A stretch of DNA of 64,000 nt from Selaginella moellendorffii (lineage: Eukaryota; Plantae; Lycopodiophyta): assembly GCF_000143415.4 (NCBI RefSeq), contig NW_003314263.1, forward strand, positions 1,546,596 through 1,610,595. Reading direction: 5' to 3'. This document shows, one piece after another, positions 5,171-31,564 of the stretch. The translations under genes and the position numbers were made by a program. The notes under the pieces are model-generated. The model worked only from the letters and a program-made list of their open reading frames with translations, was not told the origin of the DNA and searched no databases. Position 1 is the first letter of the stretch. The number at the start of each line of letters is the position of its first letter.

Positions 5171-5364
5171 TGTAAGCTCTTGAGTTTGGACTTCCTAAGA
5201 GGTCACCCAGCCCAGTACTATTCAAACCCAAGGACGCTTAACCCCAAGTATCCCAAGACCCTTAACCGATTGAAAAAAGGGGTGCACTCTTGTTCATGGG
5301 CCCTTTCCCTCTATATTTGAACCCCATGGATCATCTCTCAAGTTATTCTCTTTGGCTGCTTACA
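5171..5364 (-). mobile_element. Cassandra TRIM solo LTR (5S rRNA-derived core)
   Basis: TGTAAG...TTACA, 194 bp. TSD ATACG at 5166-5170 and 5365-5369. The reverse complement contains GTTAAGCGTCCTTGGG...TAGTACTGGGCTGGGTGACC, matching the plant 5S A-box/IE/C-box. Confidence 0.92.
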
Positions 5365-7620: not shown

Positions 7621-10600
7621 CACTAGTGCGGCAAAGGTGAATGGGCATGGTCTTAGCGTAACAAGCTGATATGTCAGTGGTACCTTTGGGTGTCAGTCTT
7701 GGGACTGGACATGTGGAGCACTTGGACCAAGTGCAAGGGTTGAATGGCATGGATGCCATTCTCGGGACTAGCAAGTCCCAAGTCCTGAATTGGATTTAAG
7801 GATGTTGTGAATGAGATGTAAGCGACTAAATTTTCCATTCTACTTTAGTCACTTAACCACACCTCCGACCAATTGGAGGAGTCTCACTCACAACCTCCAT
7901 AAGTCTTATTTCAAACTTGGGCTTGCTAGCCCCGAGAATGGCATCCCCGCCACCCAACCTTTGCACTTGGTCCAAGTGCTCCACGTGACCGATCCCATGA
8001 CTGACACTCCAAGGTACCACCAACATATCAGCCCGTTACGCTAAGGCCATGCCCATTCACCTTGGTCACACCGGTGGTCTGACACCAGCTCCATCACAGT
8101 CCCGTCCCTCAAAAACTGGGCCATCTGTTCATGAGTGATCATCCCAGATCCACTCCTTAGCATCCTTAGGATGCCGACAGACATGGGGAATAGCCTTCCC
8201 CCAATGTCCCTTTTCTGGTCCCCACCAAGTCCCTTTACTGTCCATGGCCGTGTTCACCAACACTACCATTGGATCGAGGCCCACAAGCCCGACCACTAAG
8301 TCCCACGGTCCTCTGGGACTTCCTCACCACACGACTGTGTCCTTGGTCACTACCCCAGAGGACCGCTCCTCTTCCTTTCCACAGTCTGGGCCTTTGGGAC
8401 AACATTTCAGAACACCGTGGCCTTACGTGAGCCATCTGGGTACTCTCCCCATCTTTCGCCTTTAGGTGCTCTAGCCATGGGCTTAGAGTGAGGTTCCGTT
8501 GAGCCACGCCTGGTATCTAAGTAGGTAGTGCCACCCACACTTGGACTGGGAGCATCGGCCAGTCGATCTCTCAGGGGAACTAGAGCCGGCTCTTAAACAC
8601 TTCACCAAGCTACCCCGCTTGTCGGTTCGTATTCACTCTAGTCTTGGACTTCCCAGTGGTCAGTTCATCACCCAACACTGGGTCTGGCCTTCCTGGGCCA
8701 AATTGGCCTTCCTGGGACAAACTAGCCTTTCCTGGCCATACTGGCTCCACTGCAGTCCTCCCCCTACTATACTTTTGGAGCTCACCAAACCCCCCAGGGT
8801 CTGGGAGACGAACGCTTTGGGCTTTCACCCTCTCAGACTCGAACTCGGACTCGGACTCAGACTCGGACTCGGACTTGGACTCGGACTCGGGCTCGGTCTC
8901 AGCCTTGGCCTCGGTCTTGGTCTCGATCCCAGAGTTTCGGTCCCGGTCTCGGTCTTGGTCTCAGTCCCGGTCTCGGTCTCGACCTCGGCCTCCATCTCGG
9001 GCCCTTCTCGGACTCCATCTCGGACTCCATCTCGGGCTCCGTCTCGATCCATCTCGGACTCCGTCTCGGACTCCATCTCGAACTCCGTCTCGGTCCATCT
9101 CGGACTCCATCTCGGGTCCATCTCGGACTCCGTCTTGGTCCACCTCGGACTCCACTTCGGGTCCATCTCAGACTCCATATCGGACTCCATCTCGGACTCC
9201 ACTTCGGACTCTATATCGGACTCCACTTCGGGTCCATCTCGAACTCCAACTAGGGTCTGTCTCGGACTCCATCTCAGACACTTCCACGTGTCATGTGTTG
9301 GTCCCTTTTGGGTCCCTTTTTGGAGCCTTGCTTATTGCTCGCTTCGTGCTCGCTCCTTGAGCACTTTGTTGGGAGTTCCACTCCCGCTCTCGACCTTCCA
9401 AGTCAGAGCTTTTAGTCCAAACGTGTTACACTTGTTTGGGCTTTCGCTTCGGCCACTACCACGTAGCACCCTTTCCGGCTCCACTTTGGGGCCTAGGGAT
9501 TTTGTGTCTCACAACTCCACCACCCATAGACGAAGTTCGATGTCCTCATTGAACGGTAAACCATTTTATAAAGTAACACCCGCATGTGTTACGATTTCCA
9601 TCCTTGGCACCTAGCCAATATTTGTCAATGGTTTGACATTGAAGGCTCACCATGCCTTCTCCATATTCGTCAATGGTTTGACACCAAAGGCTCACCATGC
9701 CTTGCCCATCCTCTAAGGAGGATAGTCTCTCCAACTTAGAGACTCACTTGACCACCTGAGGTGGGTTGCTCCTTTTTATTGGTTTAGTCCTCGCTAAACC
9801 CGTTAGAGACACCCTCTCTAGCTCAATTCCACTACTCATTCTTGAGTAGTCACAGATTCCATTGATTTACCTTTGCACTTTGGAACGTTTACTTTTGACT
9901 TCTTGAAGTCAATTTCCTAGGTGTCTCCGACATCTTGCCTTGCACATTTGTGCAACTCCACTTCCCCTCTTAGGAAGTTCTCTACTCGAGGGCACCCTCA
10001 TCCTCTTTTCTATTTTTGTGCCACCATTGGCATTACGTTCCATTTATCATTATTTGTGCTAAGGCTGTCCACGGCCTTATCTTTTGGCTCCTTAGTTGCT
10101 TCCTCACTTGGAGCCTTTCCTTTGCCAAATTGGAGCACTTGGGAATCCATCCTTGGAAGTCCACTTCTTTTTCCGCAATCCGTTAGCACCAAACACATTA
10201 GTGTTCTTTGGCTAACTTTGCCACTTGGATTCTTTCCAATGGATTCCACGGCCCTATTTTGGGCACTCGTCTTTTGCTCCTATCCTTGGATTGTTGCACC
10301 AAGCAACATAGGATCGCTACCTCCATTTTTGAGGTTTCCTTTCGGTTCCATAGCAAACACTTTGCTTTGCCAAGTCCAGAGGGTGTTCACCCCTAGTACG
10401 TCTCTTTAACATTTTCTGTCGTGGGCTCTATCCACGGCCCAACTTTTTGAGACCCTCCCTTGGATCTTTTATAGAGATTACTTTCCTTGGACTGACTATG
10501 CCATAGCATTGACATAGCTCATTTCCCTTAGGTGTTCTTCCCACTTGGTCACCTCAACCAAGGCACACCTTTATCAATAGTTCAAATCAACACTTTGAAC

Positions 10601-13600
10601 TAGGAATCATATTCCTTAACCCAAACAAAGACTTTGTCCTTGTTTAGCCACAAGATCACCTAGTGATCTTATTTTGACCCCTTAATAGGTCTATCAATAG
10701 AGATTAGGTCTTCCAGACCCTTCTAAGTTGTTGACTATGACCCCGGGGGCATCCCCCACACTTGGCGGTGCACCCAAGCCAGCCCTTCCGGCCAAGGATC
10801 CATAGCAACTGAGACTGGGTGTCCCCATCTCATTCACCACGTCCTTGGTGCCCTTTGCACCAAAGTGTTCAAGTTAGATATGCCGAGCTTTCACTCTAAG
10901 CAATCTAGCCGTGCATCACGACTCCGAGGCATCCCTCACTTGGCGGTGTGCCCAAACCAGTCTCCACACTGAGAGTCCATGACCACCGAAAAATGAGTGT
11001 CCTCATATTCCAAACCATCACCACGCCCTAGTGAGTTGGGACTCGAACTCAAGCACTAGAGGGTCGGGACTCGAACCCAACCTCCGTATATGCATCTATG
11101 GACGGCATCACCCAGGATGCCTGGCGTGACTCCCCACGCCGGTGCACCAACTTATACTCAAAGCGCGCTATAGATCACAGCTTAGGAACCTAGTTCCTCC
11201 ACATTGCCAAGTCCTCTCACTTGACAAGTCTGTGATCATGCATGGACTCCTCCATGCTTGGCCCCATGGCCCACCCTTTTTGAAGTTATCACCTTCAACT
11301 AGGGTATTTGTTCCCCTGACTTGCCAATCTCGCTTTGGCAAGTCCTCCGACCACTGTAACATGGTTCCTGCACAAGCGTGAAAGCCCTTGATCATTGACT
11401 TTCGTTCAAAGCCCTCACTTTGAACACTCGGGAACTACTTCCCTAACCTTGATAGCCTTGCCTCATGGCAAGTTTCAAGACCACGCTTCTGCTGCGCCAC
11501 TCTGATTTCGCGCGTTCTTTGAACCATTTACACTTGGCCTTTCTAGGTACTAAGCTACCTAGAATCATCTTTGGGAACCTTGAAGGAACTCTGTCCCTTA
11601 ACTTGTTAAGGCCTCCCTTTTTGCAAGCTTTCCAATTACCATATAGTCTAATATGGACAATTCCATATTTTAGACTCTCCATGGCATCACGGTTGCTAGC
11701 GGCAACACCCTCGAGCCCCCACTTGATTCTCCACTCCCAACTGGCATAACCAACCTTGGTTATGCCCTTCGATTCCTATGGTTTGGTTCTACCCCCATAC
11801 TTCTTGCTTTTGGCTTCACACCTTTCCTTCGGTCATTCTCCTCCAGACTAGGAGGATAGCTTTGCACTTTCTATCATGCCTTAGCAAGTATTCTTAGGGA
11901 TGAACCTACCCGATAGCCTAGGGAGTGGTTCCTCAACCCAGGTATGCTCACCCTATAATCCCACACACCGAGATTATGTTGTTGCTTATAGCCTTTACAT
12001 GCCCATCGCTAGCCTTGCCAAAAATTCCATTTTTGGCTTTGTCCAATTCGAGTAGACAGCCTTCTCCTGTCTCTGCCACCTTAGACATTTGGATAGCACC
12101 TTCTATCCATCATTCACTAGGGACTTAGTCCCTTGGGCCTTATCTATTGCCCTCGCAATATCAAACACCACCTCCTGGTGTTCTAGAGTGTTTAGGTGTC
12201 CCAATGATGGCTTCCTTGACAATGAGTATTTCCTTTCATGACATTGACTTACTATATCGCAACATAAGCAACTTATCCCCCGTAAGAGTATATCCAATTT
12301 CCTTATGCCATTAAGAAGGTGTAAGCCACAAATTTTTCCTTTCCAATTTGCCAGCTTACCTCGTCTATCCGTCCAACACTGCCTTGGCTTTTGCTAAGTC
12401 CCCTCGCCAAGGTTCTTGCCTATGGTACCAGCTCCTACTTGGTTTCAGCTACTCACTACACGAGCAACGGGGTGTTAGCCATCCTTCCACGGATTCCCAA
12501 ATCACTCCCAATCCCCCTCCCCGGGTTAGACTGGACTTAAGGTTCGGCTACACTCCCCGCAAGCACAAGCAGCCAAGCACACCAAGCTTCCAGGTTCCTA
12601 ACATCCTTTGGTACCACAAGACTTGATCATGGGACCCTCTAAATCCCAAGTCTTGAGTGCAACACTTGCTTCGGGATGCCGGGGCGAAACACCGTGGCCT
12701 AGCGGCCCGGTATGGGTACCTCTCGCCCCCCACTTCCATCCCGAAGGAAGGCCCAAGCCCCTAGGAAGGGCGAGGACCAATGAGCCGCATGGTACTCAAG
12801 TGGGGCACCACTCCACATGAGCCGGGAGCACCGCCATCGGTTTCCCTTTCGGGAGTGGGAGTTGCTCTTGAGCACTTCCTTGGATGGCCCCTCCGGCACC
12901 AGCCAAGTCCATGCTCACTCCCACCCAAGGCCCCTCGGTCCCAGTCTCAACCTCAAGTCGGTTTGGAAGCCCAACTGGAGAGTCCCTTCAAAACTGGTTC
13001 CTGGACCTCACTATCCCTACTATACTTTTGGAACCCCCTGCAGCCCCCCCCCCTTGGGAGACGCACGCTTTGGGCTTTCACCCCTTGACCCGTATTAGTA
13101 TTTGGACTTAGTCTCTGGCTCGATCTCGGACCCGATTTCGGATCCGACTTCGGATTCGGGTTCGGACTCGATCACGGACTCGATCTTGGACCCGATCTCG
13201 GACCCGACTTCGGACTCGACCTCGGACTCGGTCTCGGACCCGATTTCGGATCCGGACTCCGTCTCGAACTCGGTCTCGAACTCGGATTCGAACTCGGTCC
13301 CCGAGTCGGTCTCGGACTCGATTCCGGACTCTATCTCGAACTCGGTCCTAGAGTCGGTCTTGGACTCGATCCTCAACTTGGTCCCATCCGATAAACTCTT
13401 TGTCATTTCGGTCAAGCTTTTGGGGATCCTTTAGCCTACGACATCTCGGAGAGTCGGTTCTTTACAACTCCACCACCCATAGAAGAAGTTCGATGCCCAC
13501 ATCGAACGTCTCGTTTTATCCTACGACTGGTTGTCCATGTCTCCGGGGGCATCCCCCCACTTAGCAGTGTGCCTAAGTTAGCCTCCCCGGCCAAGAGCCC

Positions 13601-13869
13601 ATGACAACGGAATATAGGTGTCCCTATACTCCTCACTTCACCACGCCCTAGTATAGGGTCGGGACTTGAACCCAGCCTTGCTTTACTAGGGGGTTGGGAC
13701 TCGAACCCAACCTCCGTAGAATACGTCTACGGATTCGACATCCCCGCGGGGAGTCGGGCGTAGTGCCCTACGCCTGGTCGACCTATCCAACCCATGCTAA
13801 TTAGCTTACCTTTGGCGCGCCTTCGGGTCCCAACATATGCCACTTGCTCAACTTTGCAAATTGATATTT

Positions 13870-16800
13870 TTAATTGAATTTTGCATAAGTACATAGAGTT
13901 CTGCCTTGCAGAAATTCCTCCACTAGATCTCGCGCATTCGCTAGGTTTTCCTCCGGTTCCCATGTTGCTTCGCAGTGTGGAAATCCTTTCCACTTCACAT
14001 GGAACTCTCTCACCTCGCGTCCTTGTCGCTTGCTCTTGTGCGCATTGAGGATGGCTTCGACTTCGTATTCCTCTTCCCCTTGGATAACCTCAGGTAAAGG
14101 TCTCACTTGGTCCTTGCGAAGCGGATCCTCAAAGTACGGCTTGAGTAAGTTCACGTGGAACACTGGGTGCATCTTCCCCATCTCTCGAGGAAGTCGGAGT
14201 CGGTAAGCCACTTTACCGATTCGTGCCTCAATCTCGTAAGGCCCCGCGAACTTGCTTAAGGAACTCAAGATCAATTCATTTACAGGAATACATGCATCTT
14301 TACCTTTGGGTCAACTTTCGGCTGATCCCACTTGGTAGTCTGAAGTTCTTGGTGTTCAGCCACACCTTCTCCCCAGCTTGGAACTCTACATCCCGACGCT
14401 TCTGGTTCGCGTATTTGGTTTGCCTTTGTTGAGCCCGTTCCAAGGAATCCCTCACTAGATTCCAAATGCTGAGTCTTTCTGCCATGAATGCCTCCACTGC
14501 GGGCAACTCTCCATGATACTTGGCCACGCCGAGTTCCACAGGACCTTCAATAGCTCGCCCATTGATGACTTCCCATGGACTCACCCCGATACTCGAATGT
14601 GGTGAGTTGTTATAACACATTTCCGCAAGTCCCAAATGACTTACCCAATCGGTCTGGTCTCCCGAGACATAGCATCGCAAATAATCCTCCAGCTGCCTAT
14701 TCACCCTTTCCGTTTGGCCGTCTGTCAAGAAGTGTTAGGGCCAACAACTTGACTCAATACCCCATACCTGTCTGTGGGTGATAGGCTGTGCTGAATTTCA
14801 ACTTGGTGCGATACTGTTCCAGGAGAGTCCTCCAGAACCTACTGGTGAAGATCTTATCTCGATCTGAGATGATCTCTTCCGGTCTTCCCCGCACTCGAAC
14901 CACTTGTTCGAAGAACAGCTTTGCCACACCTTCCGCATCCACCTCTGTTGTGGTGGGTATGAAGTGTGCCATTTTCGAAAATCGGTCCACCACCACGAAT
15001 ATCGCATCAAACCCCTCGCTTGGGGGGAGTCCCGTGATGAAGTCCATCGTAAGACATTTCCACGGACGAGGATGCTTTGCAACAAGCCCCCACTAGCCTT
15101 GGTCACGGTTTTTACCTGCTGACATGTTGGACATGTCTTTACATAGTCTTGGACGTCCTTAGCCATATCTGGCCAATGGTACTTCCTTTTGAGTAAGCCC
15201 ATCGTCTTGGGCACTCCACCGTGTCCCGCAAGAGGTCCGTCATGACACTCTTCTAAGGCCACCTTCCTTAGTTCCCCTTCTGGAACATACACCCTCGTTT
15301 GCTTGTAATAAATGAGTCCGTTGCGTTCTGCATAGCCCGTTTTCTCTTCCGTTGGCAGCTCACCTCTCTGGTGAGCTTCCCGCGCCTCTAGATTCCTCAG
15401 CAACACTTCCTGTGCTAGACCATCGTTCTCATATGCTGTCCGCACATCGTCCCAGAAGGTTGCTGTTGCACTGGATATTGCCAACTTCAAGCTCGCTTTT
15501 CGACTTAGCACATCCGCCACGATGTTGCTCTTCCCAGGCTTGTACAGAATTTCGCAATCAAACTCGGCCAAGGCATTGGCCCATCGACCTTGTTTCCCTC
15601 TTAGGTCGGGCTGTGACAAGAAGTGTTTCGTTGCCACATTATCCGTGTAAACCTTGAAGTGTCTCCCAAGGTAGTGTCGCCACTCCTTGAGTGCCTTGAC
15701 CACCGCAAACAATTCCTTCTCGTGGGCAGGCCACTTCCGTTGAGCCTTGTCCAGCTTCTTCGAGAAGAACGCTACCGGATGGTTGTCTTGCTTCAGAACT
15801 GCGCCCAACGCAAAGTCCGAAGCATCCGTTTCTACCTCAAAGTCCTTACCAAAGTCTGGCAATGCCAATACGGGAGCCTTCCTCAACTTCCCTTTGAGGT
15901 GGACGAATGCCGCCTCGCATTCTGCTGTCCACACCATCTTCCCTTTTCCTGTTTGGTCCGTTAAGGGCAGGGCTACTCTCAAATAGTGTCTGATAAACTT
16001 TCGATAGTAGTTGCATAGCCCCAGGAATGCCCTCAACTCATGTACATTCGATGGTCGCTCCCAATCCTGGATCGCTTGGACCTTCTCCGGGTCCATCTTG
16101 AGCCCGTCCTGGCCCACCACATGCCCGAGAAACTTTACCTCTTGTTGAGCAAAGTCACATTTGCTCTCTTTAGCATACAGTTTGTGTTCCCTTAGTTTCT
16201 CAAACACCTTCGCCAAGTGTTCGGCATGCTCCTCTAGTGTCTCGCTATAGATCAGGATGTCGTCAATATAGACGACCACGAAGTGATCCAGATAGGGTAC
16301 AAAGATGTGGTTCATCAACGCCGAAAACGTTGCCGGCGCATTGCATAGCCCAAAGGGCATCACCAGAAACTCAAAGCTCCCATACCTCGTTCGACAGGTT
16401 GTCTTCTCGACATCTGCCTCAGCTACCCTGATCTGGTAGTATCCTGACCTTAGGTCAATCCTCGAGAAGTATTTTGCCTTTCCCAAAATATCAAACAGGT
16501 CCTCGATCCTTGGCAAAGGGTACTTGTTCTTTTTGGTATACTTGTTGAGCAACCGGTAGTCTATGCACATGCGCATAGATCCATCTTTCTTTTTCACAAA
16601 TAGCACCGGCGCCCCATACGGCGACTTGCTCAACCTAACATACCCTTTGTCCACCAACTCCTCTAGTTGGCTCTTGAGCTCCTTGAGTTCTTTTTCGTTC
16701 AATCGATAAGGTGGACGAACCACCGCCTCAGCACCCTCGACTAGCTCAATCTTATGTTCTATCGGTCGTGCGGGGGGCAACCCTGCCGGTAGCTCCTCCG

Positions 16801-18631
16801 GCATCATATCCTGGACTTGGTCCAGCACCTGCTGGATCACTAAAGGTACTTCTTCCGTTCTTGTCTTTTTGTCACTCTTCACCGAGAGTAAGCACAAAAA
16901 GGCTGCCTTAGTTCCTTTAGTGAGTTGTCCTCTCGTGGACACCAGGTTTAAGCATGACTCTTTGGCCTTGCTTTGCCCTACCTTTAGATCCTGGGCCTCC
17001 ACCCTAGATCTTCTTCCTTGGGCATTCGCCAATACCACAAGGTTCCTACCTTGTCCATGCAGGGCTACCATGAACCGATTAAACCAATCCATTCCGAAGA
17101 TCACGTCAAATCCCGCCATGTCCAAGACGGTGAAATCCATGTCCACTTTCCATGTCCCCACTTCGACTCTCTCTTGTCGAAGTACCTCATCGGTGCTTTG
17201 GCTACCTTGAACAAACTCTATAGTCCTTGGTTCGCCTAGCCGCTGCACCGTTAGTCCGGCTTGCCGGACTATGTCTGCAGCCACAAAATTATCTGAAGCA
17301 CCCGTGTCAATAAGGATCTTAACAAAGCTACCTCCGAGCTTCCCTCGGAGGGCTAGTAGATGTCGCGAACGACTCTCTACCAAAGTTGCTCGTGTAATGA
17401 GTAACTTTGAGTTAGGAACTGGATCACATACCTCATTTTGGACTTCACCCGACTTGATGGCCATATTGGCTCTGGCCTTCTTCGGGTAGGGACATTCCCT
17501 CGAAAAGTGTCCCGCTTCACCGCAGTTGTAGCATACGTTGTTTCCCACGCTGCTATATGACTTGACCTTCTTATCCGTGGGTTTGTCTCTTTTCGCTTGA
17601 CTCCCCCACGTACTTGCTCGCTGGCCAACGGATTTGCCTTTCCGGAATCCCGAGGACTCATTCTTAGAGAAACTCTTCTTGAATTTCCCCCTGCTATATG
17701 TTCCCCTCGGTTTGGCCCCTTTGTGAAACATGGATCCCGACCCCGTCGTGTTCCCCTTTTGCAGGTTATCGTTGAAGTGCACCTTGATGGCCGCATCCAA
17801 CGCTTCCTTATAGTTGGTCGGGTTCCAGCGCATCACCTCACCGCGAGCCCAGGTTTGCAAACCTGATATAAAGGCATGGAACGCATCCATATCCCCCATG
17901 TCCGTGACAAGTATCCTCTTTGCCATGAACCCATTCACATATTCCTGGATGGTTCCAGTCTGCTTCAGCCTACTCAGCTCATCTCTCAGATGCAGAGTGG
18001 CATTCGGAGGAACATATGTCGCGCGGATCCTCGCCTTCATAATGTCCCAGGTGGCCACCGGTCCTTCGTTGGCCTCCGTTGTTCTCCACCAAGACTTGGC
18101 ATTATCTGCCAAGTATGGTTTTGCACATGGGACCTTCTCCGAGCTCGGTAACAGTAACGCTCGGAAGTAGTCCTCCATATCGTAAAACCAATCCTCCACA
18201 ACCTTATAGTCGTTCACTCCCTTGAACGCCGGTGGGGGCTTTGGTTTGTACTTGGGAACTGCCTGAGGGACTGATTCTACTTCAGTCTGTTCGACCTTGT
18301 CTGGTTTTGCCTCAGTCCCTGCCGAAGGGTCCGCACCTTCTGCGCTGCCTTCATCCGCAGTCTTTCGCTTTTTCTTCCGCTTCTCGTCACGCTTTAACTT
18401 GCGTACGAGAGTCTCCAGCAGGGCATTGGTCTGTGCCAATTGTCCTTCTAGCACGTCCAATCGAGCCTTGGACGACCGAACCTCGCCACCGGACTCCTGT
18501 TTGGAAGTTTCCTCACTAGAGTCCTCCTCATGCAAGGATTCCTCATCCATAGCCTCTTGTTCAACTGGAGGCTCCAGCTCCGGCGGAGGTTCCGTCTCCG
18601 CCTGGGTTCGCTTACGCCCTGCCCTTGCCAT
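13870..18631 (-). CDS. gag-pol: Gag-PR-RT-RNaseH-integrase-chromodomain polyprotein (integrase interrupted by putative introns)
   Basis: [14 protein letters not shown] zinc knuckle, LIDTGA protease, YIDD RT, ETDAS RNase H, HHCC finger, [17 protein letters not shown] core, GPY motif, and chromodomain YEVEAIL...VKWKGF...TWEPEENL. Confidence 0.93.
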
Positions 18632-18739
18632 CTCCCAGCAATCCGCCTCTATCCTTCGCTAGAACTGAGATAAAGGCTCTGATACCAAATGTAAACGCCT
18701 GAGTTTGGACTTCCCGGGAGGTCACCCAGTGATACCAAA

Positions 18740-19119
18740 TGTAAACGCCTGAGTTTGGACTTCCCGGGAGGTCACCCAGCCCAGTACTATTTAAACCCAA
18801 GGACGCTTAACTCCAACTATCCCAAGACCCTTAACCGATTGGAAAAGGGGGTGCACTCTTGTTCATGGGCCCTTTCCCTCTATATTTGAACCCCATGGAC
18901 CGTCTCTCGAGTCGTTCCCTTTGGTTGCTTACAATCCACCACGCTTCCCTGCAAGTTCACACCCTCGTGAACGGAAGCTGAGAGCCGCTCTCTTGACACC
19001 CTACCCCTCGGGTCGAGCCCAGCGGGAGCAAACTGGACCAGCTAGATGTCAATCAACTTGTGGTGTGATTCCCTTAGCCAACCAACAGAGTCGGACCCGA
19101 GACCGCTCCGATACCAAAT
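18740..19119 (-). mobile_element. Cassandra unit (internal region plus one LTR) embedded at the PBS of element A
   Basis: LTR 18740-18933 with 5S-like core at 18757-18812. The internal region 18934-19119 closely matches 47238-47424. There is no TSD, and both junctions lie in TGGTATC. Confidence 0.9.
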
Positions 19120-22100
19120 TGTAAGCCACAAATTTTTCTTTTCCAATTTGCCAGCTTACCTCGTCTATCCGTCCAACACTGCCTTGGCTTTTGCTAAGTC
19201 CCCTCGCCAAGGTTCTCGCCTATGGTACCAGCTCCTACTTGGTTTCAGCTACTCACTGCACGAGCAACGGGGTGTTAGCCATCCTTCCACGGATTCCCAA
19301 ATCACTCCCAATCCCCTTCCCCGGGTTAGACTGGACTTAAGGTTCGGCTACACTCCCCGCAAGCACAAGCAGCCAAGCACACCAAGCTTCCAAGTTCCTA
19401 ACATCCCTTGGTACCACAAGACTTGATCATGGGACCCTCTAAATCCCAAGTCTTGAGTGCAACACTTGCTTCGGGATGCCGGGGCGAAACACCGTGGCCT
19501 AGCGGCCCGGTATGGGTACCTCTCGCCCCCCACTTCCATCCCGAAGGAAGGCCCAAGCCCCTAGGAAGGGCGAGGACCAATGAGCCGCATGGTACTCAAG
19601 TGGGGCACCACTCCACATGAGCCGGGAGCACCGCCATCGGTTTCCCTTTCGGGAGTGGGAGCTGCTCTTGAGCACTTCCTTGGATGGCCCCTCCGGCACC
19701 AGCCAAGTCCATGCTCACTCCCACCCAAGGCCCCTCGGTCCCAGTCTCAACCTCAAGTCGGTTTGGAAGCCCAACTGGAGAGTCCCTTCAAAACTGGTTC
19801 CTGGACCTCACTATCCCTACTATACTTTTGGAACCCCCTGCAGCCCCCCCCCCTTAGGAGACGCACGCTTTGGGCTTTCACCCCTTGACCCGTATTAGTA
19901 TTTGGACTTAGTCTCTGGCTCGATCTCGGACCCGATTTCGGATCCGACTTCGGATTCGGGTTCGGACTCGATCACGGACTCGATCTCGGACCCGATCTCG
20001 GACCCGACTTCGGACTCGACCTCGGACTCGGTCTCGGACCCGATTTTGGATCCGGACTCCGTCTCGAACTCGGTCTCGAACTCGGACTCGAACTCGGTCT
20101 CGAACTCGGACTCGAACTCGGTCTCGAACTCGGACTCGAACTCGGTCCCCGAGTCGGTCTCGGACTCGATTCCGGACTCTATCTCGAACTCGGTCCTAGA
20201 GTCGGTCTTGGACTCGATCCTCGACTTGGTCCCATCCGATAAACTCTTTGTCATTTCGGTCAAGCTTTTGGGGATCCTTTAGCCTACGACATCTCGGGGA
20301 GTCGGTTCTTTACAGAAGGCTTGGGTAGCTACCTTCTACCCGTTTAACCAATTATTTTGCACCTCTTGCTTAGTTGTCAAGTCCTACAACTCATTGCTGG
20401 TGCTTCCACACCTCCATCATTATCTAGATCACCACACTCCAACTGCATGCTCTGCAGCTTAGGCTATGCCATTCCCATTTCCATTGGGATTCCTTTGGCA
20501 AGGGGTTCTCCTGAACCCAGCAACATAGCCTCAAGGTATCACACCTTGACACATTTGGTGTCTCCACACCATCGGCTCCACGAGCCTACCTCTATGACAC
20601 TTTTTCTTTGTGTCTAAGTCTTTGCCAAGACCAATACCACACTTTCTCATACCAACCATCCGTTAGCACTGCACCATAGAGGTCACACACAAATTTGTTT
20701 CAAAGTTGTTTTCTTTTTGGGAACACCCTTCCCACGACTTTAGCATGGCACATTTTACCATCAATGAGATACCCTCTGTTCTCATCCTTGGATCCTATGA
20801 TCCCCGCCTTCCTTTGTGGGGTACCACACACTTCAGTCCAAATGCTTCCATCAGTCCTTTAGGACCATTCCTTGAATCTACTTGAGTCATCCAGCAGTTT
20901 TGGACTTGGTTAATCCACAGACCCGTAAGGTCCTACTTGTCAGGCACTAGCTCACTGGAATACACTTCTTGCATTCATGTCCTCACTCACAAGAACTATT
21001 TTCATAAGTGTTACTCTGACATTTGATTTTGTTCTCTGGGGCAACCTTTGCCCCTTAGGACTACTTGTCCATGTGATGAGAATACCAACTCATCTCTAAG
21101 TACACCCCCCAACTCCTTGGGTTGTTCCAGCATTTATTAAAGGTAGCCTTGGCTACCATTTCAAGGACTTGAGCCCTCTTCCGTATTTGACTTCCCACAG
21201 TCATTACTTTTGGTCTCACATTCATGAGCACCAACCTCAACTATATGAGGATAATCTTGTGACTCCTTTATTGCTTTGGAGTCTTTATCTTTCCCGTGAT
21301 CCCAACTATAGTTGTTTATCACAACTACATTAGCCCGTTTGTTGCTTCAAACACTCATTTGGATCACATCCTCAGCTCTCTAAGGAAACCTTATACTGTT
21401 CCCAAGATCCCAAAGTCATTCCATTATTGGCCCCTTTTCTATCCACCACATTGTGCCGAAGTTCACGCATGAACTTGAGTGGAGAGCCATGTCCTTTCGA
21501 CATGCTACTCCTCAAGGATAAGCCCACTCTTAGGACTTTCCGATGCCAACATCAATGGTGATATACTTGAGCACCTGTCCAATAAAAGTTAGACTAAGGA
21601 ACAGCTCCGATACCATGTTGTAAGCGACTAAATTTTCCATTCTACTTTAGTCACTTAACCACACCTCCGACCAATTGGAGGAGTCTCACTCACAACTTCC
21701 ATAAGTCCTATTTCAAACTTGGGCTTGCTAGCCCCGAGAATGGCATCCCCGCCACCCAGCCTTTGCACTTGGTCCAAGTGCTCCACGTGACCGATCCCAT
21801 GACCGACACTCCAAGGTACCACCAACATATCAGCCCGTTACGCTAAGGCCATGCCCATTCACCTTGGTCACACCGATGGTCTGACACCACCTCCATCACA
21901 GTCCCGTCCCTCAAAAACTGGGCCATCCGTCCATGAGTGATCATCCCAGATCCACTCCTTAGCATCCTTAGGATGCCGACAGACATGGGGAATAGCCTTC
22001 CCCCAATGTCCCTTTTCTGGTCCCCACCAAGTCCCTTTACTGTCCATGGCCGTGTTCACCAACACTACCACTGGATCGAGGCCCACAGGCTCGACCACTA

Positions 22101-24346
22101 AGTCCCACGGTCCTCTGGGACTTCCTCACCACACGACTGTGTCCTTGGTCACTACCCCAGAGGACTGCTTCTCTTCCTTTCCACAGTCTGGGCCTTTGGG
22201 ACAACATTTCGGAACACCGTGGCTTTATGCGAGCCACCTGGGTACTCTCCCCACCTTTCGCCTTTAGGTGCTCTAGCCATGGGCTTAGAGCGAGGTTCTG
22301 TTGAGCCACGCCTGGTATCCAAGTAGGTAGTGCCACCCACACTTGGACTGGGAGCATCAGCCAGTCGATCTCCCGGGGGAACTAGAGCCGGCTCTTGAAT
22401 ACTTCACCAAACTACCCTGCTTGTCGGTCCGTATTCACTCTAGTCTTGGACTTCCCAGTGGTCAGTTCATCACCCAACACTGGTTCTAGCCTTCCTGGGC
22501 CAAACTAGCCTTCCTGGGCCAAATTGGCCTTTCCTGGCCAAACTGGCTCCACTGCAGTCCTCCCCCTACTATACTTTTGGACCTCACCAAACCCCCCAGG
22601 GTCTGGGAGACGAACGCTTTGGGCTTTCACCCTCTCAGACTCGAACTCGGACTCGGACTTGGACTCAGACTCGGGCTCGGGCTCGGTCTCAGCCTTGGCC
22701 TCGGTCTTGGTCTCGGTCCCGGTCTCGGTCCCGGTCTCGGTCTCGGTCTCGACCTCGGACTCCATCTCGGGCCCTTCTCGGACTCCATCTTGGACTCCAT
22801 CTCGGACTCCGTCTCGGACTCCATCTCGGACTCCGTCTCGGACTCCATCTCGGACTCCGTCTCGGTCCATCTCGGACTCCATCTCGGACTCCGTCTCGGT
22901 CCACCTCGGACTCCATCTCGGACTCCATCTCGGGTCCATCTCGGACTCCGTCTCGGTCCACCTCGGACTCCATCTCGGACTCCATCTCGGGTCCATCTTG
23001 GACTCCATCTTGGGTCCATCTCGGACTCTGTCTCGGTCCACCTCGGACTCCACTTCGGGTCCATCTCGGACTCCATATCGGACTCCATATCGGACTCCAT
23101 CTCGGACTCCAATTCGGACTCCACATCGGACTCCACTTCGGACTCCACATCGGACTCCACTTCGGGTCCATCTCGGACTCCAACTAGGGTCTGTCTCGGA
23201 CTCCATCTCGGACACTTCCACGTGTCATGTGTTGGTCCCTTTTGGGTCCCTTTTTGGAGCCTTGCTTATTGCTCGCTTCGTGCTCGCTCCTTGAGCACTT
23301 TGTTGGGAGTTCCACTCCCGCTCTCGACCTTCCAAGTCAGAGCTTTTAGTCCAAATGTGTTACACTTGTTTGGGCTTTCGCTTCAGCCACTACCACGTGG
23401 CACCCTTTCCGGCTCCACTTTGGGGCCTAGGGATTTTGTGTCTCACATGAGACTCCTCCAAGTGGTCAGAGGTGTGCTTAAGTGAGTAAAGTAGAATAGA
23501 AAATTTAGTCTCTTACACCTTGGTTACCATTTTAAGGACCTATGTCCTCATCCATATTTGACCTCTTATGGTTACTAACTTTAGTCGTAAATTCTTAAGC
23601 ACATCCTCGACTACATGAGGATAAACTTATGACTCCTTTATCGTTTAAAAGTTTCCATCCTTCCCATGATCTCAACTGTAATTGTTTACTATAACCACAT
23701 TATTGTAAGGAACCGACTCCCTGAGATGTCGTAGGCTAAAGGATCCCCGAAAGCATGACCGAAATGACAAAGAGTTTATTGGATGGGATCGAGTCGAAGA
23801 TCGAGTCTAAGACCGACTTTGAGACCGAGTTTGAGATAGAGTCCGGGATCAAGTCCGAGACCGAATCCGAGACCGAGTTCGAGACCGAGTTCGAGACAGA
23901 GTCCGAGATCCAAATCGGGTCCAAGACCGAGTCCGAGGTCGAGTTCGAAGTCGAGTCCGAGATCGGGTCTGAGATCGAGTCCGAAATCGAGTCCGAGACC
24001 GAGTCCAAAGTCGGGTCCGAGATCGAGCTGAGATCGATTTTGAGACTAAGTCCACATACTAATACAACTCAAGGGGTGAAAGCCCAAAGCGTGTGTCTCC
24101 CAGGGGGGGGGGGGCTCCAAGGGGTTCCAAAAGTATAGTAGGGATAGTGAGGTCTAGGAACCAGTCTTGAAGGAACTCTCCAGTGGGGCTTCCAAACCGA
24201 CTTGAGGTTGAGACTAGGGCCGAGGGGCCTTGGGTGGGAGTGAGCATGGGCTTGAGTGGTGCCGGAGGGGCCACCCAGGGAAGTGCTCAAGAGCAGCTCC
24301 CACTCCCAAAAGGGAAACCGACTGTAGTGCTCCCGGCTCATGTGGA

Positions 24347-26236
24347 TGTGAGACACAAAATCCCTAGGCCCCAAAGTGGAGCCGGAAAGGGTGCCACGTG
24401 GTAGTGGCCGAAGCGAAAGCCCAAACGAGTGTAACACGTTTGGACTAAAAGCTCTAACTTGGAAGGTCGAGAGCGGGAGTGGAACTCCCAACAAAGTGCT
24501 CAAGGAGCGAGCACAAAGCGAGCAATAAGCAAGGCTCCAAAAAGGGACCCAAAAAGGACGAACGCATGACACGTGAAAGTGTTTGAGATGGAGTCCGAGG
24601 TGGACCAGGACGGAGTCCAAGGTGGATTCCGAGATGGAGTCCGAAGGGGAGTCCGAGATGGAATCCGAGATGGAGTCTGAAGGGGAGTCCGAGATGGAAT
24701 CCGAGATGGACCAAGACGGAGTCCGAGATGGAGTCCGAGATGGAGTCCGAGGTGGAGTCCGAGGTGGAGTCTGAGATGGAGTCCGAGGTGGAGTCCGAGG
24801 TGGAGTCCGAGATGGAGTCTGAGATGGACCGAGACGGAGTCTGAGATGGACTGAGATGGAGTCCGAGATGGAGTCCAAAGTGGAGTCCGAGATGGAGTCC
24901 GAGATGGAGTCCGAGGTGGAGTCCAAGATGGACCGAGACGGAGTCCGAGATGGAGTCCGAGATGGACCGAGACGGAGTCCGAGATGGAGTCCGAGATGGA
25001 CACGGGATGGAGTCCGAGATGGAGTCCGAGAAGGACCCGAGATGGAGTCCGAGGTCGAGACCGAGACCGGGACCAAGACCGAGACCGAGACCGAGACCGG
25101 GACAGAGACCGGGACCGAGACCGAGACTGAGGCCAAGGCTGAGACCGAGCCCGAGCCTGAGTCCGAGTCCGAGTCCGAGTCCGAGTCCGAGTCCGAGTCC
25201 GAGTCCGAGTCCGAGTCCGAGTCCGAGTTCAAGTCTGAGAGGGTGAAAGCCCAAAGCGTTCGTCTCCCAGACCCTAGGGGGTTTGGTGAGCTCCAAAAGT
25301 ATAGTAAGGGGGAAGACTGCAGTGGAGCCAGTTTGGCCAGGAAAGGCCAGTTTGGCCCAGGAAGGCCAGACCCAGTGTTGGGTGATGAACTGACCACTGG
25401 GAAGTCCAAAACTAGAGTGAATACGGACCAACAAGCGGGGTAGCTTAGTGAAGTTTTCAAGAGCCGGCTCTAGTTCCCCCGGGAGATCGACTGGCCGATG
25501 CTCCCAATCCAAGTGTGGGTGGCACTACCTACTTGGATACCAGGCGTGGCTCAACGAAACCTCGCTCTAAGCCCATGGCTAGAGCACCTAAAGGCGAAAG
25601 GTGGGGAGAGTACCCAGGTGGCTCGCATAAGGCCACGGTGTTCTGAAATGTTGTCCCAAAGGCCCAAACTGTGGAAAGGAAGAGGAGCAGTCCTCTGGGG
25701 TAGTGACCAAAGACACAGTCATGTGGTGAGGAAGTCCCAAAGGACCGTGGGACTTAGTGGTCGGGCCCGTGGGCCTCGATTCAGTGGTAGTGTTGGTGAA
25801 CACGGCCATGGACAGTAAAGGGACTTGGTGGGGACCAGAAAAGGGACATTGGGGGAAGGCTATTCCCCATGTCTGTCGGCATCCTAAGGATGCTAAGGAG
25901 TGGATCTGGGATGATCACTCATGGACGGATGGCCCAGTCTTGGAGAGACGGGATTGCAATGCAGGTGGTGTGAGACCACCGATGTGACCAAGGTGAATGA
26001 GCGTGGCCTAGCGTAACAGGCTCATATATCGGTGGTACCTTTGGGTGTCGGTCTTGGGACCGGACACGTGGAGCACCTGGACCAGGTGCAAGTGTTGAGT
26101 GGCATGGATGCCATTCTTGGGGCTAGCAAGTCCCAAGTCCTGAATTGGACTGATGGAGGTTGTGAATGAGACTCCTCCAAGTGGTTGGAGGTGTGGTTAA
26201 GTGACTAAAGTAGAATGGAAAATTTAGTCGCTTACA
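24347..26236 (+). mobile_element. Family-X solo LTR inside the 5' LTR of B
   Basis: TGTGAGAC...CTTACA. TSD GTGGA at 24342-24346 and 26237-26241. Confidence 0.93.
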
Positions 26237-26804
26237 GTGGAGTGGTGCCCCACTTGAGTACCTTGTGGCTCATTGGTCCTCGCCCTTCCTAGGGGCTTGG
26301 GCCTTCCCTTCGGGATGGAAGTGGGGGGGTAGAGGTACCCATATCGGGCCGTTAGGCCACGGTGTTTCGCCCCGACGTCCCGAAGCAAGTGCTACACACA
26401 AGGCTTGGGATTTAGAGGGTCCCATGATCAAGTCTTGTGGTACCAAGGGCTGTTAGGAATCTGGAGGCTTGGTGTGCTTGGCTGCTTGTGCTTGTGGGGA
26501 GTGTAGCCGAACCTTAAGTCCAGTCTAACCCGAGGAGGGGGATTGGGAGAGATTTTGGAATCCGTAGATGGATGGCTAACACTCCGTTGCTCGTGCAGTG
26601 AGTAATTGAAAACCAAGTAGGACCAAGTAGAAGCTGGTACCATAGGCGAGAAGCTTGGCGAGGGAACTTAGCACAAGCCAAGGCAGAGTTGGTCGGATAG
26701 ACGAGGTAAGTTGGCAAATTGGAAAGGAAAAATTTGTGGCTTACAATTTGGTATCAGAGCCTTTTCCTCAGTTCTAGCAAAGGATAGAGGCGGATTGCTG
26801 GGAG

Positions 26805-29800
26805 ATGGCAAGGGCGGGGTGTAAGCGAACCCAGGCGGAGATGGAACCTCCGCCAGAGCTAGAGCCTCCGGTCGAACAAGAGGCTATGGATGAGGAATTG
26901 TTGCATGAGGAGGACTCCAGTGAGGAAACTTCCAAACAGGAGTCCGGTGGCGAGGTTCGGTCGTCCAAGGCTCGATTGGACGTTCTAGAAGGACAATTGG
27001 CACAGACCAATGCCCTGCTGGAGAATCTCGTACGCAAGCTAAAGCGTGACAAGAAGTGGAAGAAAAAGCTAAAGACTGCGGATGCTGGTAGCGTAGAAGG
27101 TGCGGACCCTTCGGCAGGGACTGAGGTAAAACCAGACAAGGTCAAACAGACCGAAGTGGAATCAGTCCCTCAGGCAGTTCCCAAGTACAAACCAAAGCCC
27201 CCACCGGTCTTCAAGGGAGTGAACGACTATAAGGTGGTAGAGGAATTGTTTTACGATATGGAGGACTACTTCCGAGCGTTGCAATTACCGAGCTCGAAGA
27301 AGGTCCCATGTGCAAAACCATACTTGGCAGATAATGCCAAGTCTTGGTGGAGAACGACAAAGGCCAACGAAGGATTGGTGGCCACTTGGGAAATGATAAA
27401 GGCGAGGATCTGCGCAACTTACGTTCCTCCAAATGCTACTCTGCATCTAAGGGACGAGTTGAGTAGGCTGAAACAGACCGGAACCATTTAGGAGTATGTG
27501 AATGGGTTTATGGCAAAGAGGATACTTGTCATGGACATGGGGGATATGGATGCGTTCCATGCCTTCATATCAGGTTTGCAAACCTGGGCTTGCGGTGAAG
27601 TGATGCAGTGGAACCCGACCAACTACAAGGAAGCGTTGGATGCGGCCATTAAGGTGCATTTCAACGATAACCTACGAAAGGGGAATACGACGGGGTTGGG
27701 ATCCACGTTTAGCAAAGGGGCCAAACCAAGGGGAACATTTAGCAGAGGGAAATTCAAGAAGAGTTTCTCTAAGAATGAGTCCTCGGGTTCCGGAAAGGCA
27801 AATCCGGTGGCCACCGAGCGAGTACGTGGGGGAGTCAAGCGAAAAGAGACAAACCCACGGATAAGAAGGTCAAGTCATATAGCAGCGTGGGAAACAATGT
27901 ATGCTACAACTGTGGTGAAGCGGGACACTGTTCAAGGGAATGTCCCTACCCGAAGAAGGCCAGAGCTAATATGGCTATCAAGTCGGGTGAAGTCCAAACT
28001 GAGGTATGTGATTCAGTCCCTAACTCAAAGTTACTCATTACATGAGCAACTTTGGTAGAGAGTCGTTCACGACATCTACTAGCCCTTTGAGGGAAGCTCG
28101 GAGGCAGCTTTGTTAAGATCCTTATTGACACAAGTGCTTCAGATAATTTTGTGGCTGCAGACATAGTCCGGCAAGCCAGACTAACGGTGCAGCGGCTAAG
28201 CGAACCAAGGACTATAGAGTTTGTTCAAGGTAGCCAAAGCACCGATGAGGTACTTCGACAAGTGAGAGTCGAAGTAGGGACATGGAAAGTGGACATGGAT
28301 TTCACCGTGTTAGACATGGCGGGATTTGACGTGATCTTCGGAATGGACTGGTTCAATCGGTTCGTGATAGCCTTGCATGGACAAGGTAGGAACCTTGTGT
28401 TACTAGCGAATGCCCAAGGAAGAAGATCCAGGGTGGAGACCCAGGATCTAAAGGTAGGGCAATGCAAGGCCAAAGATTCGTGCTTAAACCTGGTGTCCAC
28501 GAGAGGACAACTCACAAAAAGGACTAAGGCTGCATTTTTGTGCTTACTCTCGGTGGGGAGTGACAAAAAGACAAGAATAGAAGAAGTACCTTTAGTGATC
28601 CATTGGGTGTTGGACCAATTCCAGGATACCATGCCGGAGGAGTTACCGGCGGGGTTGCCACCCGCACGACCGATAGAACATAAGATCGAGCTGGTCGAGG
28701 GTGCTGAGGCGGTGGTTCATCCCCCCTATCGTTTGATCGAGAAAGAACTCGAGGAGCTCAAGCACCAACTAGAGAAGTTGGTGGACAAAGGGTATGTTAG
28801 GTTGAGCAAGTCACCGTATGGGGTGCTGGTGTTATTTGTGAAAAAGAAAGATGGATCTATGCGCATGTGTATAGACTACCGGTTGCTCAACAAGTATACA
28901 AAGAAGAATAAGTGCCCTTTGCCCAGGATTGAGGACTTGTTCGATATTTTGGAAAGGCAAAATACTTCTCGAGGATTGACCTAAGGTCAGGATACTACCA
29001 GATCAGGGTAGCCGAGGAAGACGTCGAGAAGACAACCTGTCGAACGAGGTATGGGAGCTTTGAGTTTCTGGTGATGCCCTTCGGGCTATGCAATGCGCCG
29101 GCAACATTTTCGGCGCTGATGAACCACATCTTTGTACCCTATCTGGATCACTTCGTGGTCGTCTATATCGACGACATCCTGATCTATAGCGAGACGCTAG
29201 AGAAGCATGCCGAACACTTGGCGAAGGTGTTTGAGAAACTAAGGGAGCACAAGCTGTATGCTAAAGAGAGCAAATGTGACTTTGCTCAACAAGAGGTAAA
29301 GTTTCTCGGGCATGTGGTGGGCCAGGACGGGCTCAAGGTGGACCCGGAGAAGGTCCAAGCAATCCAGGAATGGGAGCGACCATTGAATGTACATGAGTTG
29401 AGGGCACTCCTGGGGCTATGCAACTACTATTGAAAGTTTATCAGACACTATTTGAGAGTAGCCTTACCCTTAACGGACCAAATAGGAAAAGGAAAGATGG
29501 TATGGACAACAGAATGCAAGATGGCATTCGTCCACCTCAAAGGGAAGTTGAGGAAGGCTCCCGTATTGGCATTACCAGACTTTGATAAGGACTTTGAGGT
29601 AGAAACATATGCTTTGGACTTTGCGTTGGGCGCAGTTTTGAAGCAAGACAACCATCCGGTAGCGTTCTTCTCGAAGAAGCTGGACAAGGCTCAACAGAAG
29701 TGGCCTGCCCATGAGAAGGAATTGTTTGCGGTGGTCAAGGCGCTCAAGGAGTGGCGACACTACCTTGAGAGACACTTCAAGGTTTACACGGACAATGTGG

Positions 29801-31564
29801 CAATGAAACACTTCTTGTCACAGCCCGACCTGAGAGGGAAACAAGGTCGGTGGGCCAATGCCTTGGCCAAGTTTGATTGCGAGATTCTATACAAGCCTTG
29901 GAAGAGCAACACCGTGGCGGATGCACTAAGTCAAAAAGCGAGCTTGAGGTTAGCAATATCCAATGCAATAGCAACCTTCTGGGATGATGTGCGGACAGCA
30001 TATGAGAACGATGGTCTAGCACAAGAAGTGTTGCTGAGGAATCTAGAGGTACGGGAAGCTCACTAGAGAGGTGAGCTACCAACGGAAGAGAAAACGGGCT
30101 ATGCGGAATGCAACAGACTCATCTATTACAAGCAAACAAGGGTGTATGTTCCAGAAGGGGAACTAAGGAAGGTAGCCTTAGAAGAGTGTCATGACGGACC
30201 TCTTGCGGGACACGGCGAAGTGCCCAAGACGATGGGCTTACTCAAGAGGAAGTACCATTGGCCAGATATGGCTAAGGACGTCCAAGATTATGTAAAGATA
30301 TGTCCAACATGTCAGCAGGTAAAAGCCGTGACTAAGGCTAGTGGGGGCTTGTTGCAAAGCATCCTCGTCCATGGAAATGTCTTACGATGGACTTCATCAC
30401 GGGACTCCCCCCAAGCGAGGGGTTTGATGCGATATTCGTGGTGGTGGACCGATTTTCGAAAATGGCACATTTCATATCCACCACAACGGAGGTGGATGCG
30501 GAAGGTGTGGCGAAGCTGTTCTTCGAACAAGTGGTTTGAGTGTGGGGAAGACCGGAAGAGATCATCTCAAATCGAGATAAGATCTTCACCAATAGGTTCT
30601 GGAGGACTCTCCTAGAACAGTATCACACCAAGTTGAAATTCAGCACAGCCTATCACCCACAGACATGTATGGGGTATTAGGTCAAGTTGTTGGCACTAAC
30701 ACTTCTTGACAGACGGACAAACGGAAAGGGTGAATAGGCAGCTAGAGGATTATTTGCGATGCTATGTCTCGGGAGACCAGACCGATTGGGTAAGTCATTT
30801 GGGACTTACGGAAATGTGTTATAACAACTCACCACATTCGAGTATCGGGGTGAGTCCATGGGAAGTCATCAATGGGCGAGCTATTGAAGGTCCTATGGAA
30901 CTCGACGTGGCCGAGTATCATGGAGAATTACCCGCAGTGGAGGCATTCACGGCGGAAAGACTCAGCATTTGGAATCTAGTGAGGGATTCCTTGGAATGGG
31001 CTCAACAAAGGCAAACCAAATATGTGAACCAGAAGCGTCGGGATGTAGAGTTCCAAGCTGGGGAGAAGGTGTGGCTGAACACCAAGAACCTCAGGCTACC
31101 AAGTGGGATCAGCCGAAAGTTGACCCAAAGGTAAAGATGCATGTATTCCTGTAAATGAATTGATCTTGAGTTCCTTAAGCAGGTTCACGGGGCCTTACAA
31201 GATTGAGGCACGAATCGGTAAAGTGGTTTACCGTCTCCAACTTCCTCGAGAGATAGGGAAGATGCACCTAGTGTTCCATATGAACTTACTCAAGCCGTAC
31301 TTTGAGGATTCGCTTCGCAAGGACCAAGTGAGACTTTTACCTGAGGTTATCCAAGGGGAAGAGGAATATGAAGTCGAGGCCATCCTCAATGCACACAAGA
31401 GCAAGCGACAAGGACGCGAGGTGAGAGAGTTCCATGTGAAGTGGACAGGATTTCCACACTGCGAAGCAACATGGGAACCGGAGGAGAACCTAGCAAACGC
31501 ACGAGATCTAGTGGAGGAATTTCTGCAAGGCAGAACTCTATGTACTTATGCAAAGTTCAATTAA
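26805..31564 (+). pseudogene. gag-pol: Decayed gag-pol-chromodomain of copy B
   Basis: Colinear with the polyprotein of A, but broken by several stops and frameshifts (e.g. 27489, 28088, ~28955, 29431, 30064). Confidence 0.93.

Follow-up and report, generated by a model that had tools for sequence, protein, structure and literature searches.

Organization of the locus

The window, by which we mean the whole stretch of 64,000 nucleotides analysed from Selaginella moellendorffii, contains two copies (A and B) of a gypsy retrotransposon, a LARD-like element C, several copies or remnants of a small element of the Cassandra type and a peroxidase exon (Table 1). Nesting is common in it, copy A lying within element C and a C-family solo LTR within copy B. 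Read on the minus strand, copy A opens with its 5' LTR, the spacer ATT and the PBS TGGTATCGGAGC, and continues into a Cassandra internal region and a Cassandra LTR, from which it passes through the spacer TT, a PBS and a short leader to reach the gag ATG at 18631. Copy B has the plain order LTR-ATT-TGGTATCAGAGC-leader (from 26746 on), with an A-form PBS and nothing between. The extra unit in copy A thus amounts to 429 nt and comprises a Cassandra PBS, internal region, PPT and LTR; this order of parts, together with the plain PBS of copy B, is as the original prediction had described it. Elsewhere in the window a copia-like LTR end with its PBS occurs twice, at 59326 and 60784, flanking an N run, and is possibly an assembly overlap.

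Table 1. Features of the locus, in window positions
Feature	Positions	Strand	Remarks
Cassandra solo LTR with TSD	5171..5364	-	
LARD-like element C, non-coding, own TSD	7817..23447	-	holds A; LTRs 21619-23447 and 7817-9513; G-form PBS
3' LTR of copy A, 1147 nt	12320..13466	-	Galahad PPT directly before
Integrase C-terminal part and chromodomain, 103-codon ORF	13873..14250	-	
Candidate intron 2, integrase, 52 nt	14252..14303	-	GT..AG in B, acceptor altered in A
Candidate intron 1, integrase, 46 nt	14722..14767	-	GT..AG, in A and B
gag-PR-RT-RNaseH-integrase N part, 1277 codons open	14801..18631	-	leaves integrase frame near 15070
Integrase stretch 10 nt short	15066..15077	-	identical in A and B; homologue comparison
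Joint 2: Cassandra 2-nt spacer and Galahad A-form PBS	18676..18689	-	Galahad leader follows
Perfect 50-nt tandem duplication	18680..18779	.	box C end, U5, spacer, A-form PBS start
Cassandra LTR, 194 nt	18740..18933	-	PPT before, spacer-PBS after
Predicted 5S-derived Pol III promoter	18770..18812	-	box A, 18-nt spacer, box C; one mismatch each
Cassandra pre-LTR/PPT stretch	18934..18958	-	GAACTT at -25, GTGGTGGA, 13 nt identical to tRNA-Met
Cassandra internal region, PBS to PPT, 183 nt, non-coding	18934..19116	-	10 differences in 183 columns against the 47-kb Cassandra
Joint 1: Galahad 3-nt spacer and G-form tRNA-Met PBS	19105..19119	-	compared with B, C and the 47-kb Cassandra
5' LTR of Galahad copy A, 1195 nt	19120..20314	-	compared with 3' LTR
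Galahad copy B, older (LTRs 5.6% apart)	23704..33107	+	plain PBS, own TSD; 5' LTR split by family-C solo LTR
Peroxidase exon	40677-41114		100% identical to a Selaginella moellendorffii protein
Free Cassandra with TSD	47060..47717	-	perfect 98-nt duplication over LTR end/PBS; 17-nt deletion in 3' LTR

Copy A is a single young insertion, the outer LTRs and the TSD of which come from one integration. Its two LTRs differ at 13 of 1147 columns (1.1%), all transitions, with one 48-nt gap, and the whole copy is flanked by a 5-bp TSD (12315-12319 and 20315-20319). The absence of a TSD that had been stated for this locus hence does not hold for copy A as a whole, and the 9-nt repeat around the insert itself includes a 5-nt direct repeat.

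A chromovirus of the SM1-Galahad type

The gypsy elements encode, in this order, gag, protease, RT, RNase H, integrase and a C-terminal chromodomain (Pfam; Chromo E 4.7e-15), and match the SM1-Galahad type of the Galadriel-clade chromoviruses, the identification being by published description and not by consensus sequence. As in the SM1-Galahad of the same host, to the extent that the available text of Novikov et al. (PMC3350952) describes it, the element is of about 7.5 kb, with a poly-G tract in the LTR, a tRNA-Met PBS and two additional short ORFs, of which the terminal one measures 309 nt and encodes the chromodomain. The LTRs measure 1139-1195 nt here against 1076/1146 there, and the first ORF of 3875 nt, with a 10-nt shortfall, stands against one of 3885 nt. 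The present copies are unlike it in that the integrase is 10 nt short in both and that copy A carries the Cassandra unit at its PBS. The same text reports no intact SM1-Galahad, and an intact, single-ORF SM2-Galahad with 99.7% LTR identity. Among the matches listed, the nearest database proteins are mostly 45-60% identical. In copy A the gag-PR-RT-RNaseH frame is open, and the comparison of A with B indicates purifying selection on it (pN/pS 0.18-0.22). Two other assignments were considered and rejected, namely the Tcn1 clade, which is mostly without a tRNA PBS, and SmoLTRA4 as the partner, on account of its LTR size.

A Cassandra-type TRIM in a lycophyte

Judged by its sequence features, the small element is a Cassandra-type 5S-promoter TRIM in a lycophyte. 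Like the Cassandra lineage as described in the accessible parts of PMC7215508 and bioRxiv 2023.07.14.548913, it is non-coding, smaller than 1 kb and equipped with two short LTRs, a box A and a box C separated by 18 nt, inside the 15-25 nt expected of the lineage, a tRNA-Met PBS, a PPT and a 5-bp TSD, the last seen in the copy at 47060-47717 and also around the solo LTR. The two boxes occur in three Cassandra LTRs of the window, each box with one mismatch to the published Cassandra pattern (PMC7215508, available text), and the PBS follows box C after 32 nt, within the expected 5-200 nt. It is unlike that lineage in its host, in these mismatches, in a 5S core near the 3' end of the LTR, in the fusion of one unit into a coding element and in its G-form PBS, which differs at one position both from the published Cassandra PBS and from 124 of 125 tRNA-Met matches. 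Rfam gave a 5S match at 18747-18867 (E 0.0037) below the gathering score; at that score it returned no matches in the window, and ARAGORN likewise returned none there. The Cassandra part of copy A is 92-95% like the free Cassandra and 91% like the solo LTR; these two, each with its own 5-bp TSD, stand 5-10% from the unit in copy A. The LTR pair of the free Cassandra has diverged by 3.9%.

The window holds three perfect duplications of complex sequence; two of them are located at the ends of Cassandra LTRs and could reflect either a strand-transfer hot spot or a weakness of the assembly. In the free Cassandra the 98-nt duplication lies at 47359-47557 and the 17-nt deletion at 47083-47100; both of these, and the 50-nt duplication of copy A, break at box C, where Cassandra may have a short R region. 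A further observation concerns a 13-nt stretch ahead of the Cassandra 3' LTR (18936-18948; 47240-47252, minus), which is identical, in the sense direction, to part of the D arm of plant tRNA-Met: all ten loci checked for them are tRNA-Met and 38 of 200,000 shuffles match, for a motif that was chosen post hoc.

The original prediction had placed the 5S promoter about 130 bp upstream of the gag ATG of copy A. The distances are about 180 nt for box A and about 140 nt for box C, and the promoter probably has little bearing on gag. RNA made by Pol III does not as a rule undergo translation, two upstream ATGs that are out of frame with gag come in with the insert, and RNA run X22 has zero depth on 18300-18643, the start of gag. 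The reads of that run over 18755-18812 continue into 5S-gene-like sequence and are thus not Cassandra, with few reads on the internal part; among the differences listed none falls inside the boxes except at the first base of box A. These 5S reads fit the promoter mirroring described in the available part of bioRxiv 2023.07.14.548913.

Both joints lie in the shared primer site

Both joints of copy A fall within 9 nt (TTTGGTATC) common to the Galahad and Cassandra primer sites. Joint 1 combines the 3-nt spacer of Galahad with the G-form PBS of Cassandra (G at position 8), and joint 2 the 2-nt spacer of Cassandra with the A-form PBS of Galahad (A at position 8), with the inner Cassandra LTR keeping its own PPT before and a spacer-PBS after. 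The joints fall where strand transfer normally happens, and spacers and PBS forms sort as a template-switch model predicts. The shared stretch stands on either side of the insert and contains the 5-nt direct repeat TTTGG. The placement of the joints within the shared PBS had been correctly anticipated, if with a different length for the shared stretch and with two PBS starts; there are three, owing to the head-to-tail tandem duplication of period 50 at 18680-18779. Its identical units each join the final 40 nt of the Cassandra LTR to TT-TGGTATCA, and because the first unit ends in an A-form PBS the duplication postdates or accompanies joint 2. Folding of the duplicated stretch was uninformative (z -1.5).

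The integrase lesion and two candidate introns

Copies A and B shift frame at three identical places in the integrase, namely one shortfall and two inserts. At the shortfall all 72 matching homologues have 7 residues, as against 11 nt here. Across the two inserts the protein is colinear, with the motif contiguous in 137 homologue matches and a spacing of 135 against a mode of 134-136. By sequence criteria the inserts are intron-like and candidates for spliceosomal introns; they would explain the integrase split which, in the available text on SM1-Galahad (PMC3350952), appears as extra ORFs. The shortest host introns in the window measure about 64 nt, and the accessible portion of PMC6157073 has the intron lengths of this species clustering with fungi rather than with land plants. 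A protein search for the spliced integrase product found none at E<=1e-25, the best of the 150 matches listed being 48% identical. The literature searched, to which Repbase and bioRxiv supplements did not belong, held no report of Galahad integrase introns, and the Ogre intron is the only one named in the available text of PMC6317226. A strong donor-like splice site also occurs at 13812 (minus) in the Galahad 3' UTR, and is present in B as well.

Autonomy, taken as uninterrupted coding of all domains including the integrase, is lacking in both copies, and the term "autonomous partner" used in the original prediction is overstated for A and B. Given that copy A inserted recently with its integrase frame broken just as in B, it would have moved without an integrase of its own, which argues for supply in trans within the Galahad family; the donor may have been an SM1 copy free of the lesion or an intact SM2-Galahad. 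Behind the lesion 22 of the 45 changes between A and B are synonymous, against 33-36% under neutrality (P 0.02-0.05), a weak excess that speaks faintly against an old dead integrase and would be unexplained if the lesion were old.

Element C, a small TRIM and the shared signals

Element C has an internal region of about 4.1 kb with no match to the retrotransposon proteins tried, and several of its solo LTRs are found in the window. It shares with Galahad the PPT, blocks of the 3' UTR and a 12-nt minisatellite in the LTR, and is likely a second passenger. Cassandra, Galahad A and B and element C all carry the motif GAACTT at 25 nt upstream of the 3' LTR, and their PPTs all contain GTGGTGGA, so that the likeness of the PPTs is better than had been claimed, a second 6-nt motif standing at an equal distance from the LTR. 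A small TRIM at 1932-2444 has neither motif and a different PPT; the motifs were picked after the fact, and the window offered no copia PPT as a control. The PPT of element C agrees with that of Galahad at 24 of 25 nt, and Cassandra is far less alike; no longer similarity between Cassandra and Galahad was found beyond short motifs. They have in common the primer tRNA and the TGTAA..TTACA ends, which had been offered as a link between them. These ends are indeed present in both, but an unrelated small element (1932-2444) has them too, and element C likewise carries the Galahad PPT; termini and primer are thus shared with other families.

Some further features of these elements may be recorded. 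The small TRIM-like element, spanning about 1740-2444 (minus), has a 162-nt LTR, a G-form Met PBS and repeated units of PPT and LTR start. At 11480-11506 (minus) element C contains the first 27 nt of tRNA-Met in sense, with one mismatch, possibly a primer tRNA captured as template. Hairpins at 13658-13711, 11077 and 31727-31775, in the 3' UTRs of Galahad A/B and in element C, are T-arm-like.

Origin of the chimera

With moderate confidence, and arguing from the arrangement of the sequence, we favor the view that the Cassandra unit was joined to copy A by template switching in a particle shared by Galahad and Cassandra. The Galahad minus strand would reach the Galahad PBS, where its template ends, anneal at the PBS of an unprimed co-packaged Cassandra RNA and copy spacer, U5 and R; an R-to-R jump to the Cassandra 3' end would then allow U3, PPT, internal region and Cassandra PBS to be copied. 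Pairing of the Galahad plus-strand strong-stop DNA with the Cassandra PBS would place Galahad LTRs at both ends, and an integrase would insert the product with a 5-bp TSD, likely being supplied in trans because A and B share the integrase lesion. A monomeric Cassandra RNA would suffice, with no need of a circle or a tandem array. An equal product could come from a multi-LTR Cassandra RNA or from mis-paired plus-strand transfer between two cDNAs, either of which would also require a shared particle.

Near-identical outer LTRs and a single TSD are regarded by Sabot and Schulman (PMC1950507), who name VejuL and BARE2 as template-switch products, as hallmarks of complexes that arise during reverse transcription, and copy A shows just this combination around an inner LTR. 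Their complexes likewise have an internal third LTR between two internal regions; they join one family at R, whereas the two families brought together in copy A are unrelated, they meet at the PBS and the inner LTR is foreign. Template switching at the PBS, as originally proposed, is accordingly the best fit to the spacers, the PBS forms, the outer LTRs and the single TSD, but the evidence is one copy in one assembly, and one chimera shows at most one shared particle. Other points that speak against it are the 9-nt repeat with its 5-nt direct repeat and the existence of DNA donors with an equal order of parts.

Such donors are the basis of the alternative that the unit was captured after insertion, by repair of a break at or near the PBS of A, with microhomology-primed copying that used either a multi-LTR Cassandra or a one-LTR circle as its template, or, in a variant, by recombination with a one-LTR circle; co-packaging would be unneeded. 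Repair of this kind yields the identical order of parts, and tandem Cassandras are common according to the available texts of PMC4079214, which puts multi-LTR forms at about 20% of intact pear copies, and PMC7215508; the accessible part of PMC4717578 adds that five Selaginella TRIM subfamilies form tandems. The 50-nt duplication, its first unit ending in the A-form PBS, shows a renewed rearrangement of this site when the joint was already in place. Against this, the homology is only 9-12 nt, both ends would have to fall by chance in the PBS, 12 nt of a 7.5-kb element in which, we infer, RT intermediates end naturally, and copy A is young (1.1%), leaving little time. Taken with its variant, we regard such capture as unlikely.

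An artefact of assembly or cloning, in which two high-copy repeats were fused at their shared primer site, appears improbable. A search of public runs listed 24 rows, 20 of which hold part of the stretch and three half or more; these three, from one sample, hold 65-74% of its words, and no RNA run holding the stretch was among the rows. Pieces of four runs were aligned to 18300-19560, and the normal Galahad joint, skipping the 429 nt, was found in X1, X2 and X5. Because this plain joint is unbranched in a 439-nt contig of X5 at a depth of 33.6, the chimera is not the main form of the Galahad family. None of the 24 pieces listed, beyond which there were 61,742 more, bridges either joint, the joints and loose ends among them being normal Galahad and normal Cassandra forms. 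While this absence is what an artefact would give, it is neither support nor refutation, because junction contigs would be of about 50 nt and the pieces listed are the longest. The window also holds three N runs, and both of its PBS-bearing Cassandras carry duplications of identical units (50 nt and 98 nt), 98 identical nt being unlikely at an LTR divergence of 3.9% unless the duplication is younger than the insertion. However, assemblers do not join on 9 nt; an artefact would have to produce two exact joints, correctly ordered and oriented and with the spacers properly sorted; the leader and LTR that flank the unit belong to one TSD-flanked element; and the best runs, with their partial share of the words, may come from another genotype without the locus. 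As a separate observation, a contig of X1 (joint of 18935 to 19113) links a gypsy-like LTR end with the first part of a PBS to a Cassandra LTR start, and the 32 other letters in between look like a PPT and the beginning of an LTR; the short side is of 27 nt and may be a chance match.

Least probable of all is that a complete Cassandra entered by normal integrase action at the TTTGG of the Galahad spacer/PBS and then lost its 5' LTR through deletion between two near-identical LTR-end/PBS stretches: TTTGG does stand on either side of the insert, nesting is frequent in the window and the 47-kb Cassandra shows an LTR deletion, but this course needs one exact site in about 7,500 and then a base-precise deletion, and no remnant of a first Cassandra LTR is present. 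The earlier statement that the unit is not an integrase insertion is thus likely right but falls short of proof, since the 5-nt direct repeat is compatible with an integrase event and a later deletion.

Galahad as a likely vehicle for Cassandra

If the unit was acquired by template switching in a shared particle, then Galahad-group particles were likely a vehicle for this Cassandra, although not necessarily an exclusive one. A link specific to Galahad is weakened by the much closer agreement of element C than of Cassandra with the Galahad PPT, and by the wider sharing of termini and primer. As a tentative possibility, Galahad could be the helper of the lycophyte Cassandra and the first partner for any Cassandra, making its integrase from spliced mRNA and packaging the unspliced RNA together with a guild of passengers that share its PPT. 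These passengers would be the integrase-defective copies, element C and Cassandra, the particles would work in trans by design, and chimeras at the PBS would be a fossil record of co-packaging.

A rather doubtful variation on this, which differs from the template-switching account solely in the supplier of the proteins, holds that the chimera was particle-borne but that the proper helper is another element, for instance the intact SM2-Galahad, with SM1-type RNA, element C and Cassandra all as passengers. The shared integrase lesion of A and B favors it, as does the state of the two Galahad types in the available text of PMC3350952 (no intact SM1-Galahad, and SM2-Galahad intact with near-identical LTRs). 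On the other side, the open gag-PR-RT-RNaseH frame of A is under purifying selection relative to B, and SM1 copies without the 10-nt loss could make a full integrase if the inserts are spliced.

The literature searched, which did not extend to Kalendar 2008, Maiwald 2021 and Jiang 2002, held no Cassandra-chromovirus chimera, no named Cassandra partner and no lycophyte Cassandra. The view that the helper of Cassandra is an open matter agrees with the available text of PMC7215508, in which its partners are called unknown, and the accessible parts of PMC10886601 and PMC12486564 name none. A sugar beet survey (bioRxiv 2026.03.01.708851, PMC13570524), in the part available, argues for a generalist, network-like mobilization and reports chimeric TRIMs. 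One other Selaginella TRIM is tied to a gypsy element in the available text of PMC4717578, the supplement of which has no Smo-Cassandra; this SmoRetroS4/SmoLTRA4 pair resembles the present case in that tie, but SmoRetroS4 is a 393-nt TRIM with a 104-nt LTR and a deletion derivative, not a 5S element with a 194-nt LTR. Template-switch chimeras are already known as a kind. In rice, the non-autonomous Dasheng has reportedly been linked to its gypsy partner RIRE2 by shared cis signals and chimeric copies; those two are said to share LTR sequence, whereas Cassandra and Galahad share only short motifs.

Implications

Cassandra shares no long sequence with coding elements, so that similarity searches cannot name its helper; a chimera at the primer site can, and the present locus names a candidate helper in a small, sequenced genome. 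The reviews, as far as their available text goes, give Cassandra for ferns and angiosperms, and a 5S-promoter TRIM in a lycophyte would either extend Cassandra beyond these groups or represent another independent origin. Introns that survive reverse transcription would mean that the packaged RNA is the unspliced one, and their retention inside the integrase, if true, would keep translated and packaged RNA apart by an unusual means.
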